In this document: in pieces, positions 1 through 26,865 of the stretch | Numbering within the stretch: position 1 is the stretch's first letter | Layout of the letters: every line of letters starts with the position of its first letter | Assembly (NCBI RefSeq): GCF_003790525.1 | Contig: NZ_CP033635.1 | From: Escherichia coli | GTDB taxonomy: Bacteria; Pseudomonadota; Gammaproteobacteria; Enterobacterales; Enterobacteriaceae | Reading direction: 5' to 3' (one strand) | Length of the DNA stretch: 64,000 bases | Notes under the pieces: generated by a model | Told to the model about the DNA's origin: nothing | Databases searched by the model: none | What the model saw: the letters and a program-made list of their open reading frames with translations, nothing else | Program-made: the position numbers and the translations under genes

Positions 1-1010
1 ATTTTTTCACTGATGAACAACTTTCTCGCGCGGCGTGGATCTACGGCGAACGCGCCATTGCTGCGGCGCAAACAAAACTTCCGCCAGCGTTTGAACTGCC
101 AGGGGCAAAGCATATTTTGTTTCGTGGTCATTGCAGCGAAAGCGATGTACAACAACTGGCGGCTGAGTCCGGTGACGATCGCAGCGTGGTGATTGGCGTC
201 GGCGGCGGCGCACTGCTCGACACCGCGAAAGCCCTCGCCCGCCGTCTCGGTCTGCCGTTTGTTGCCGTTCCGACGATCGCCGCTACCTGCGCAGCCTGGA
301 CACCGCTCTCTGTCTGGTACAACGATGCCGGACAAGCGCTGCATTATGAGATTTTCGACGACGCCAATTTTATGGTGCTGGTGGAACCGGAGATTATCCT
401 CAACGCGCCGCAAGAATATCTGCTGGCGGGGATCGGTGACACGCTGGCGAAATGGTATGAAGCGGTGGTGCTGGCCCCGCAACCAGAAACGTTGCCGTTA
501 ACCGTGCGGCTGGGGATTAATAACGCGCAGGCCATTCGCGACGTCTTGTTAAACAGTAGCGAACAGGCGCTTGCCGATCAGCAAAATCACCAGTTAACGC
601 AATCATTTTGCGATGTGGTGGATGCCATTATTGCTGGTGGTGGGATGGTTGGTGGTCTGGGCGATCGTTTTACGCGTGTGGCGGCAGCTCATGCCGTGCA
701 TAACGGTCTGACCGTGCTGCCGCAAACCGAGAAGTTTCTCCACGGCACCAAAGTCGCCTACGGAATTCTGGTGCAAAGCGCCTTGCTGGGTCAGGATGAT
801 GTGCTGGCGCAATTAACTGGAGCGTATCAGCGTTTTCATCTGCCGACTACGCTGGCGGAGCTGGAAGTGGATATCAATAATCAGGCGGAGATCGACAAAG
901 TGATTGCCCACACCTTACGTCCGGTGGAATCCATTCATTACCTGCCGGTCACGCTGACACCAGATACGTTGCGTGCAGCGTTCGAAAAAGTGGAATCGTT
1001 TAAAGCCTGA
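1..1010 (+). CDS. ybdH: Hydroxycarboxylate dehydrogenase YbdH (iron-containing alcohol/glycerol dehydrogenase family), 5' partial
   Basis: Frame open from the window start (codons from position 3) to the stop at 1008-1010. The listed ORF 117..1010 matches remembered YbdH sequence, and the GGGALLDTAKA motif is typical of the family. Confidence 0.85.
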   Translation, partial: FFTDEQLSRAAWIYGERAIAAAQTKLPPAFELPGAKHILFRGHCSESDVQQLAAESGDDRSVVIGVGGGALLDTAKALARRLGLPFVAVPTIAATCAAWTPLSVWYNDAGQALHYEIFDDANFMVLVEPEIILNAPQEYLLAGIGDTLAKWYEAVVLAPQPETLPLTVRLGINNAQAIRDVLLNSSEQALADQQNHQLTQSFCDVVDAIIAGGGMVGGLGDRFTRVAAAHAVHNGLTVLPQTEKFLHGTKVAYGILVQSALLGQDDVLAQLTGAYQRFHLPTTLAELEVDINNQAEIDKVIAHTLRPVESIHYLPVTLTPDTLRAAFEKVESFKA

Positions 1011-23683: not shown

Positions 23684-23794
23684 TTGACAATATCTGGTAC
23701 GATTCGCCCGCAGCCATCACTGACCACGGGCGAAAGTGTAAAGCAGGTGCCTTACCATCCTGACCTGACAACCGGATATGCGGGGATTGCTCCC

Positions 23795-25130
23795 ATAAGC
23801 GCTAACTTAAGGGTTGTGGTATTACGCCTGATATGATTTAACGTGCCGATGAATTACTCTCACGATAACTGGTCAGCAATTCTGGCCCATATTGGTAAGC
23901 CCGAAGAACTGGATACTTCGGCACGTAATGCCGGGGCTCTAACCCGCCGCCGCGAAATTCGTGATGCTGCAACTCTGCTACGTCTGGGGCTGGCTTACGG
24001 CCCCGGGGGATGTCATTACGTGAAGTCACTGCATGGGCTCAGCTCCATGACGTTGCAACATTATCTGACGTGGCTCTCCTGAAGCGGCTGCGGAATGCCG
24101 CCGACTGGTTTGGCATACTTGCCGCACAAACACTTGCTGTACGCGCCGCAGTTACGGGTTGTACAAGCGGAAAGAGATTGCGTCTTGTCGATGGAACAGC
24201 AATCAGTGCGCCCGGGGGCGGCAGCGCTGAATGGCGACTACATATGGGATATGATCCTCATACCTGTCAGTTCACTGATTTTGAGCTAACCGACAGCAGA
24301 GACGCTGAACGGCTGGACCGATTTGCGCAAACGGCAGACGAGATACGCATTGCTGACCGGGGATTCGGTTCGCGTCCCGAATGTATCCGCTCACTTGCTT
24401 TTGGAGAAGCTGATTATATCGTCCGGGTTCACTGGCGAGGATTGCGCTGGTTAACTGCAGAAGGAATGCGCTTTGACATGATGGGTTTTCTGCGCGGGCT
24501 GGATTGCGGTAAGAACGGTGAAACCACTGTAATGATAGGCAATTCAGGTAATAAAAAAGCCGGAGCTCCCTTTCCGGCACGTCTCATTGCCGTATCACTT
24601 CCTCCCGAAAAAGCATTAATCAGTAAAACCCGACTGCTCAGCGAGAATCGTCGAAAAGGACGAGTAGTTCAGGCGGAAACGCTGGAAGCAGCGGGCCATG
24701 TGCTATTGCTAACATCATTACCGGAAGATGAATATTCAGCAGAGCAAGTGGCTGATTGTTACCGTCTGCGATGGCAAATTGAACTGGCTTTTAAGCGGCT
24801 CAAAAGTTTGCTGCACCTGGATGCTTTGCGTGCAAAGGAACCTGAACTCGCGAAAGCGTGGATATTTGCTAATCTACTCGCCGCATTTTTAATTGACGAC
24901 ATAATCCAGCCATCGCTGGATTTCCCCCCCAGAAGTGCCGGATCCGAAAAGAAGAACTAACTCGTTGTGGAGAATAACAAAAATGGTCATCTGGAGCTTA
25001 CAGGTGGCCATTCGTGGGACAGTATCCCTGACAGCCTACAAAACGCAATTGAAGAACGCGAGGCATCGTCTTAACGAGGCACCGAGGCGTCGCATTCTTC
25101 AGATGGTTCAACCCTTAAGTTAGCGCTTAT
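23795..25130 (+). mobile_element. Insertion sequence IS186 (IS4 family)
   Basis: Perfect 22-bp terminal inverted repeats (ATAAGCGCTAACTTAAGGGTTG at 23795-23816; reverse complement at 25109-25130), flanked by a 12-bp direct repeat GGGATTGCTCCC (23783-23794 and 25131-25142). Exact ends are ambiguous by 1 bp because the target is palindromic. Confidence 0.9.
23849..24960 (+). pseudogene. insL: IS186 transposase InsL, interrupted by an apparent 1-bp frameshift at a G5 run
   Basis: An N-terminal frame (MNYSHDNW..LAYGPGG, stop at 24080-24082) and a C-terminal frame (MSLREVTAWAQ.., 24010..24960) overlap and switch frame at GGGGG 24005-24009. Together they reconstitute a single IS4-type transposase of about 370 aa. 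Confidence 0.7.
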
Positions 25131-25152
25131 GGGATTGCTCCCCGCACAACGG

Positions 25153-25305
25153 CTACTTCTTCGGTTCGTAAGCGAGAACAGCCTTAAACTCAATATTACG
25201 TTCCTTCACCGTAAACTCACACAGCGAGTCTCCGACCAGAAGCGTAAATCCCAGCACCGTCAAACACAGCACTATGACTGCCACAAGGGCATATTTCGTC
25301 AGCAT
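25153..25305 (-). CDS. hokE: Hok-family type I toxin (small membrane peptide)
   Basis: 50-aa peptide [50 protein letters not shown], typical Hok/Gef. The listed 88-aa ORF is an in-frame upstream extension. Confidence 0.85.
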
Positions 25306-25737
25306 GTTTATATTGCCTCCATGCGAAGAAGGGACTACCATCCAAATTGTTCGGGTTTGGAGTGGCAGCCCCAGGGTTGATAGAAATATCTCCTGGGGCT
25401 TCATCTTTCCAGACCTCAAAGTTAACCTGAAACCGGAAAGCTTCAGGCACCCGCCGTTATCTTACCCTTCCTCAACAAAATAGCTGTTTATTTATACAGT
25501 AAATCCTGTTTCGGACTTCTCACTCCCCATTTGATCAACTGAAGCTGAACCCGTTTTTATCTGCACGCCTCAATCGTCAAAATTCTTCGCCGCCAGCCAA
25601 CTATGACGCAACTGGTCACATTGCAAAATGTAGCCAATTTGCTTCAGTCACCATCACCAAAAAAAGAAATATTCCAGAACTTCCGCATCTCGCCCAGTCG
25701 CTCCCACTTCTATACTGAATAGAAAACGCCAACATAA

Positions 25738-26865
<1,128 letters not shown>

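Follow-up and report, generated by a model that had tools for sequence, protein, structure and literature searches.

Is the hokE toxin gene of Escherichia coli accompanied by a Sok-type antisense RNA and by an overlapping mok frame, as hok is in the R1 hok/mok/sok system, and if so, where do these elements lie? For the DNA analyzed here, a stretch of 64,000 nucleotides that we refer to as the window, an original prediction had named a hokE toxin locus, and this naming is borne out by an identical annotated protein, by the Pfam HOK_GEF domain and by a match of the leader to the Rfam family RF01794. Judged by its sequence, the region is the hokE/sokE chromosomal type I toxin-antitoxin module of E. 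coli, a system that has already been described. Of the sequence-level traits of the hok/sok family that we considered, four are predicted to be present, and two (the mok initiation region and the pairing of the mRNA ends) are missing. The overall reading that we consider very probably correct is that of a hokE/sokE module that has no canonical mok and whose mRNA is severed at its 3' end by an IS186 element. The main relevance of this analysis lies in the annotation of hokE/sokE.

The hokE gene, its leader and its promoter

The toxin gene and its upstream elements are located as follows.

25153..25305, minus strand: hokE coding sequence, 50 amino acids (MLTKYALV...AYEPKK), from the ORF list, an identical annotated protein and Pfam
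25297..25452, minus strand: hokE mRNA 5' leader, from the inferred +1 (GGGUGCC, near 25452) to the hokE AUG, by Rfam RF01794
25459..25464, minus strand: putative -10 box TAAGAT of the hokE promoter, six bases 5' of the inferred +1 and without a good -35 box, read from the sequence
25484..25499, minus strand: predicted LexA (SOS) box CTGTATAAATAAACAG, lying over the -35 region of the hokE promoter, by the core pattern CTGT-N8-ACAG

A query of 901 bases around the locus is 100% identical to E. coli strain 702/18, whose annotation places hokE (WP_000956465.1) between an IS421-family (IS186) transposase gene and ybdK. The HokE protein scores 34 bits against the Pfam model HOK_GEF (PF01848; cut-off 22), as a toxin ORF of the Hok/Gef type. 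Codon 46 of hokE, a UAC followed by G (25168..25170, minus strand), forms the UACG of an A-to-I editing site and adjoins the 3' arm of the long-range leader helix described below; editing of the hokE mRNA, which changes Tyr46 to Cys, amounts to 40% in K-12 (PMC12214031). Many Escherichia genomes carry two hokE/sokE copies in tandem, about 500 bases apart (L002, 1021..1675; L008, 720..1375; also L011, L012 and L014).

The 50-codon toxin ORF is preceded by a structured leader of 147 nt, and the Shine-Dalgarno (SD) sequence of hokE is the GGAGG at 25316..25320. RF01794 matches the minus strand at 25297..25452 over its full model (1-157) with 81.4 bits (gathering score 59; E 4e-18). The consensus of this model starts GGGUGCUUGA and finishes at the hok AUG, and its matches fall on the hok-sense strand for K-12 hokC, K-12 hokB and an R1-like plasmid locus as well (L005, 602..754; L006, 4067..4218). 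The genes annotated as sokC and sokB are encoded by the other strand, within the span of the RF01794 match. RF01794 therefore models the leader of the hok mRNA; named 'sok antitoxin' and reporting the hok-sense strand, it can mislead the strand assignment of Sok. By analogy with these relatives, the hokE mRNA would begin near position 25452; this putative +1 and the ends of SokE given below are taken from homology and from the K-12 annotation.

At the position of the hokE -10 box, relatives carry TAGAAT, TATGAT or TAAGAT. The LexA core pattern occurs once in the 64 kb of the window, as compared with 0.04 matches expected. A search with the 20-mer LexA consensus that allowed up to three mismatches gave no match, since the box carries four mismatches to this 20-mer. 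Among 51 relatives, a CTG-N10-CAG element is present 5' of +1 in 18, and it stands 31 bases from +1 in 14 of those. The hokE gene has been counted among the SOS-induced toxin genes with a Lex box (PMC2826370), and its promoter, with a predicted box overlapping it, has the appearance of a member of the LexA (SOS) regulon. A scan of positions 25050..25750 for consensus promoters and terminators found nothing, a result that is uninformative because the Sok promoter scores 8/12 (threshold 9/12) and the loop and tail of the Sok terminator fall outside the rules of the scan. The original prediction had seen no convincing promoter for either RNA, which agrees with this consensus scan; nevertheless, an alignment of relatives makes both promoters recognizable.

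SokE and the search for a mok frame

The elements that bear on the antisense RNA and on translation of the leader are the following.

25349..25408, plus strand: sokE, 60 nt, in which a single-stranded 5' tail (about 11-14 nt) is followed by a long hairpin (25368..25399) and a U-rich end, by identity to K-12 sokE and predicted fold
25313..25341, plus strand: sokE promoter, with -35 TTGCCT (25313..25318), a 17-base spacer and -10 TACCAT (25336..25341), from the sequence and 51 relatives
25217..25450, minus strand: 77-codon frame with a GTG start, a chance open frame and not a conserved mok, from the ORF list, alleles and relatives
25369..25372, minus strand: GGGG, positional homologue of the mok Shine-Dalgarno sequence, from alignments (GAGG in 40 of 50 aligned sequences)
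25342..25360, minus strand: small CCAAA/UUUGG hairpin bordering the Sok target, four of its five pairs changed on both sides among 50 loci
25339..25341, minus strand: AUG in frame with hokE, 12 codons upstream of it and eight bases 3' of the end of the Sok duplex, a candidate start from alignments

The K-12 annotation lists an ncRNA gene, sokE (b4835; 607733..607792), opposite hokE (607836..607988), and its 60-nt sequence is identical to positions 25349..25408 of the plus strand of the window. SokE is perfectly complementary to nt 45-104 of the leader, and its predicted fold has an architecture like that of SokB and SokC. Its +1 is the first G, seven bases 3' of the -10 box TACCAT, and the same promoter (TTGCCT-17-TACCAT) is listed at the ybdK/sokE spacer by genomic SELEX with RNA polymerase holoenzyme (PMC3946193). 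The original prediction had named the lack of an antisense transcript and of a conserved sok promoter on alignment as grounds for giving it up. Such a promoter is present: among 51 HokE-clade loci from Escherichia, Citrobacter, Klebsiella, Kluyvera, Pseudocitrobacter and others, the -35 TTGCCT and the spacer of 17 bases are invariant (51/51 each), and the -10 box reads TAACAT, TACCAT or TACTAT. Alignments of the relatives have indels that directly flank this promoter block on both sides and never fall within it. Collectively, the leader harbors what is predicted to be a cis-encoded Sok antisense gene with its own promoter, tail and terminator hairpin.

Variability peaks in the part of the leader that is complementary to the Sok tail, where 45% of columns vary among 12 Escherichia alleles as compared with 8-12% in the flanking leader segments and the coding sequence. 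Tandem hokE copies in one genome likewise differ mainly in the segment complementary to the Sok 5' tail. A variable target of the Sok tail is as would be expected of a specificity determinant.

A Sok-type antisense RNA at this locus, as originally predicted, is thus upheld by sequence identity to the annotated K-12 sokE, whereas its predicted position, on the complementary strand around 25400-25490, is not: identity, promoter and hairpin all place SokE at 25349..25408 (plus strand), with an overlap of nine bases, and the antisense gene had been put 50-80 bases too far upstream in the hok sense. The segment 25400-25490 holds instead the first 53 nt of the hokE mRNA, the -10 box (25459..25464) and the LexA box (25484..25499). 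The sokE gene can be annotated with confidence at 25349..25408 of the plus strand. A 'hypothetical protein' ORF that the PGAP pipeline calls in many RefSeq genomes corresponds to positions 25274..25483 (plus strand) of the window, antisense to the hokE leader; it is intact as WP_071550428.1 in L002 and flagged as frameshifted in a window-like genome, and the 69-aa version of the window gave no match in a Pfam search. This ORF is probably a spurious call across the Sok region.

As a candidate for mok, a 77-codon frame (25217..25450, minus strand) that overlaps hokE out of frame had been put forward. The frame does exist in the ORF list, next to a second long frame of 88 aa that runs from 25419 in frame with hokE, but its reading as mok fails on three counts, as it has no conserved start codon, no SD sequence and no conservation in relatives. 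That it is open is weak evidence, because the leader is poor in stop codons: when the leader was shuffled with the coding sequence held fixed, 8% of the shuffles kept the 77-codon frame fully open. Its GTG is base 3 of the hokE mRNA and lacks a ribosome-binding site. In 3/7 E. coli alleles, the 5' portion of the frame is displaced into other frames by indels of one base in the loop and tail of Sok. In 30/51 loci, frame 1, the register of the 77-codon frame, is interrupted at -60..-13 by a stop codon, and seven loci have it closed at -1. About 15 billion public proteins include neither the 77-aa product nor a 42-aa one; extended HokE forms of 62 aa and 83 aa, both in frame with hokE, are called by some annotation pipelines. 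The 77-codon product has no match in Pfam and no similarity to Mok of the R1-like plasmid, MokB or MokC. The K-12 annotation lists mokB and mokC but not mokE, and a literature search for the name 'mokE' returned no relevant paper.

The mok AUG of R1 lies 58 bases 5' of the hok AUG, and only translation of mok up to the hok initiation region matters (PMC9841398). In K-12, mokB starts 58 bases 5' of the hokB AUG and is out of frame, while mokC starts 57 bases upstream of hokC and is in frame with it; the start codons of both are overlapped by the Sok 5' end. With respect to hok, the 77-codon frame shares its register with R1 mok and mokB. Since mokC and the mok of the R1-like plasmid are in frame, however, mok is defined by its initiation region (GAGG and AUG under the Sok 5' end) and not by its register. 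This canonical start is found in 9/51 loci, in frame 0 in six of them, in frame 2 in three and never in frame 1. E. coli hokE reads GGGGCUGCCACUCCAAACCCGAAC at this place, which contains no AUG, GUG or UUG; an SD sequence with a start codon under the Sok 5' end, as expected for a mok leader ORF, is absent from the hokE sequence.

The GGGG that stands in place of the mok SD sequence pairs with AGUCCC (25331..25336), the 'dcb' homologue. This helix reads GAGGC/GUCUC in relatives versus GGGGC/GUCCC in E. coli hokE, an exchange of A-U for G-C that is compensated on both sides (column pair 100/139 in the RNAalifold register: AU 40, GC 9; a +1 slide confirms the register). The neighboring small hairpin carries the mok AUG in its 5' arm in some relatives; in hokE, it has no AUG or GUG and only a UUG (25345..25343) in its 3' arm, and its CCAAA/UUUGG contrasts with a CCGAA/UUCGG form.

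Could the 77-codon frame still be a true mokE, which starts at UUG 25345 (as a 42-codon ORF) or at GUG 25450, opens the hokE initiation region when translated and is blocked by SokE? Its register of 58 bases, shared with R1 mok and mokB, would fit, the frame is open from 25345 to beyond the hokE start in 12/12 Escherichia alleles, and the UUG lies four bases 3' of the end of the Sok duplex. We consider this highly improbable, given that neither start has an SD sequence and the GUG is mRNA base 3, that the UUG, the sole internal start candidate of the frame, belongs to the 3' arm of a hairpin whose pairs covary and is missing from three Escherichia alleles (L010, L013 and copy 1 of L008), that most relatives have a frame 1 stop shortly 5' of or at the hok start, that any clear mok start in a relative is in frame 0 or 2, and that the product has never been called in public data. 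The 77-codon frame is not a mok; it is a by-product of a stop-poor leader, and no mokE is to be annotated from it. The absence of a canonical mok does not prove, however, that the leader is untranslated, as both the UUG (25345) and the in-frame AUG (25341) stand just 3' of the Sok duplex. Translation from AUG 25341 would yield a 62-aa N-extended HokE in Escherichia, comparable to mokC for hokC, and would be blocked by the SokE duplex; in most relatives, it would yield a 12-codon uORF that ends on the hok start (AUGCUGA), in a layout suited to termination and reinitiation. The AUG has a counterpart in 44/51 loci, the first stop in its frame at or after -12 falls at +5..+7 (UGA or UAA) in 45/51, the triplet at +5..+7 is UGA or UAA in 51/51, mokC and the R1-like plasmid locus set precedents for an in-frame mok, and the 62-aa form is among those called by annotation pipelines. 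Its conservation is confounded, however, because it is the complement of the last three bases (CAT) of the sokE -10 box, and the seven loci with a TACTAT -10 box lack it; moreover, no SD sequence lies upstream and the register varies (-32, -33, -36). We regard this start, in either of its two forms, as quite unlikely.

A broader proposal encompasses most HokE-clade loci (42/51, among them all Escherichia hokE): the classical mok start would have been lost and the SD/dcb helix kept by compensatory change, with control resting either on a short leader ORF at the AUG of the Sok -10 box or purely on cleavage of the mRNA. We put this forward tentatively, as a rather unlikely account. If its short-ORF variant were true, a 4-base insertion in Escherichia would have turned the uORF that ends at AUGCUGA into an in-frame N-terminal extension; if the cleavage-only variant were true, Sok would exert control without translational coupling. 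With the classical mok start absent from most HokE-clade leaders, one may ask what gates hok translation in these loci. Our preferred reading remains that of a hokE/sokE module without a canonical mok.

Further observations concern this part of the leader. Codon 2 of hok (codons 2-3 are positions 25297..25302 of the window) is CUG in 42 and CUA in nine of the 51 loci, so that the +1-shifted triplet after the hok AUG is always UGA or UAA, a possible termination-reinitiation signal. Two other starts were rejected: the in-frame AUG 25404 (83-aa product) is absent outside Escherichia, with a stop or a frameshift in several alleles, and a 4-codon mini-ORF at the hokE SD sequence (AUG at -17) has no SD sequence of its own and is found in Escherichia only.

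Folding of the hokE mRNA and the IS186 insertion

The long-range pairings of the mRNA and the insertion downstream of hokE involve these elements.

25324..25331, minus strand: CUUCUUCG, which as 5' arm pairs with CGAAGAAG (25156..25163), at the end of the hokE ORF, in a long-range helix, from the MFE fold
23744..23753, minus strand: AAGGCACCUG, a 3' element of the fbi type that is complementary to GGGUGCCU at the 5' end of the mRNA, from a duplex search, alignment and fold
23703..23734, minus strand: hairpin UUCGCCCG...CGGGCGAA located 3' of the fbi element, presumably where the full-length ancestral transcript of hokE ended, with a putative terminator role
about 23795..25130 (+/-1 base each side): IS186 (IS421 family; IS4-like), transposase gene on the plus strand, from the junctions versus the insertion-free genomes L008 and L009

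We modeled the hok mRNA with seven helices on an alignment of 50 sequences; they include the end pairing, the 5' stem, the complement of the Sok hairpin, the small hairpin, the leader-ORF end helix and the IS-target hairpin. In this model, 94% of the cells are paired, versus 35-52% with the partners slid, 13 pairs show compensatory change, and 0/500 shuffles reach the observed values. The long-range helix that joins the leader to the ORF end and closes the domain with the hokE SD sequence is paired in 96.8% of the cells across 50 loci. The full-length RF01794 match and the covariation in 50 relatives together mark the predicted leader as that of a structured hok mRNA.

The 3' partner of the mRNA 5' end was found by duplex search at 329-352 nt from +1 in 50/51 loci, with a single exception at +430, and GGGUGC/GCACCC is paired in 50/50. 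When the IS is removed from the window in silico, an mRNA of about 400 nt results, of which nt 1-8 pair with nt 353-360 in the MFE fold. The 3' hairpin at 23703..23734 is conserved among Escherichia alleles. As it stands in the window, the tac/fbi end pairing is broken, with the 3' element and the hairpin that follows it 1.35 kb away from the mRNA body.

The two strands of the Sok-hairpin region do not pair alike in all loci. A C-A mismatch on the hok mRNA strand of 40/50 relatives corresponds to a U-G wobble on the Sok strand (columns 72/100; window positions 25371 and 25396), so that the hairpin is better paired in Sok than in the mRNA of these relatives. In E. coli hokE, with its GGGG, the region is fully paired on both strands and the SD homologue is buried.

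The element that separates the 3' end from the mRNA has the size (about 1.34 kb), the terminal inverted repeats, the short target duplication and the GC-rich site of an IS186. It spans 1336-1338 bp with ends CATAAGCGCTAACTTAAGGGTTG and a duplication of 10-12 bp at the target GCGGGGATTGCTCCCCGC, carries the direct repeat GGGATTGCTCCC on both flanks (23783..23794 and 25131..25142), is 99.5% identical to K-12 IS186B and sits in the GC-rich hairpin GCGGGGAGCAAUCCCCGC, 21 nt after the hokE stop. Both this insertion, which truncates the hokE mRNA, and the LexA box had escaped the original prediction. The K-12 copy (L004, 2508..3852) occupies the same hairpin in the opposite orientation relative to hokE, which indicates that the two insertion events were independent. 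Of 5426 complete E. coli genomes, 1722 have the K-12-type junction and 216 the window-type junction, counts that are not phylogenetically independent; IS186 has thus entered one hairpin twice independently, and the two insertions together are present in about one third of the complete genomes. Near position 24005, the CCCCGGGGGG run of the transposase gene has one G fewer than in the near-identical strain 702/18; the missing G, possibly a genuine frameshift and possibly a sequencing error in the homopolymer, splits the 370-aa transposase ORF and leaves 331 aa as the longest piece.

The hok systems are defined by a stable, 5'-3' closed and translationally inert full-length mRNA. Because the IS186 element leaves the transcript without its 3' fbi element and terminator hairpin, an mRNA of this kind cannot form from the hokE copy of the window, which should be flagged in annotations as having its 3' regulatory end split off by IS186. 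Insertion elements are reported to have inactivated hokA, hokC and hokE (PMC12214031; PMC7232551). With respect to hokE, 'inactivated' may be too strong a term, because K-12 expresses hokE mRNA, with A-to-I editing, although it carries the IS. Have hokE and sokE, then, become an inert relic, functionless after the IS186 insertion and with features that are merely inherited? The number of genomes with IS186 at this site (1722 and 216 of 5426), the description of hokE as inactivated (PMC7232551; PMC12214031) and the failure of chromosomal hok loci to bring about post-segregational killing (bioRxiv 10.1101/2025.08.07.668861) speak for this possibility. The intact ORF, Sok promoter and leader helices, which are kept across genera with compensatory changes, do not, nor do the toxicity of the HokE coding sequence on expression and the presence of hokE mRNA, 40% of it edited, in the IS-bearing K-12 strain (PMC12214031). 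We therefore give the relic serious weight as an explanation, yet judge it doubtful, and continue with a hokE/sokE module whose mRNA has been severed at the 3' end.

Proposed control of hokE and comparison with known systems

At the level of sequence, the anatomy consists of a toxin ORF with a structured leader, within which lies an antisense gene that has a conserved promoter and hairpin, together with a LexA box and a 3' end severed by an IS element. Transcription of hokE would proceed on the minus strand from a weak promoter (-10 box at 25459..25464; LexA box at 25484..25499) with a start near 25452, and SokE would be made as a 60-nt plus-strand RNA from within the leader (promoter at 25313..25341). 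If the R1 paradigm applies, the single-stranded 5' tail of SokE would nucleate pairing at leader nt 85-104, and pairing would extend from there to nt 45; RNase III would cut the resulting SokE-hokE duplex, which would also block the access of ribosomes to the leader, so that HokE would be kept off. Insertion-free strains would, by the same analogy, hold the full-length mRNA inert through its end pairing until 3' trimming, while a genome that bears IS186 would not make this stable, inert full-length mRNA.

The R1 hok/mok/sok system (parB) and hokE have in common a Hok/Gef toxin, an RF01794 leader, an antisense RNA that arises from within the leader and has a 5' tail and a terminator hairpin, the tac/fbi end pairing, the SD-mok/dcb helix and a long-range helix that connects the leader with the ORF end. 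Unlike R1 parB, hokE has no mok start codon, carries GGGG for GAGG, has a leader that is about 26 nt shorter and a promoter with a LexA box, is chromosomal and has its 3' end cut off by IS186. With respect to the R1-like plasmid used for comparison (L007, 758..859), we noted that its Hok coding sequence is annotated from an internal start (34 codons), while the full 52-aa Hok lies at 701..856, and that its mok is in frame with hok (57 bases), unlike that of R1 (58 bases).

The K-12 loci hokC (gef)/mokC/sokC and hokB/mokB/sokB share family and layout with hokE, including a Sok 5' end that lies 44-49 bases 5' of the hok AUG; an IS186 is likewise present downstream of hokC, about 19 bases beyond the stop codon. 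Both hokC and hokB differ from hokE in that they have a GAGG followed by an AUG, a codon that the Sok 5' end overlaps by 9-11 bases and that hokE lacks. The closest counterpart is K-12 hokE (b4415)/sokE (b4835). The corresponding region of the window is about 96.6% identical to it, which sets the window apart from K-12 itself, the HokE proteins differ in type (WP_000956465 versus WP_000956455; one residue class), and IS186 is reversed in the window relative to hokE, while SokE is identical and the architecture of the leader, the site between entD and ybdK and the presence of an IS186 in the GC-rich hairpin are shared.
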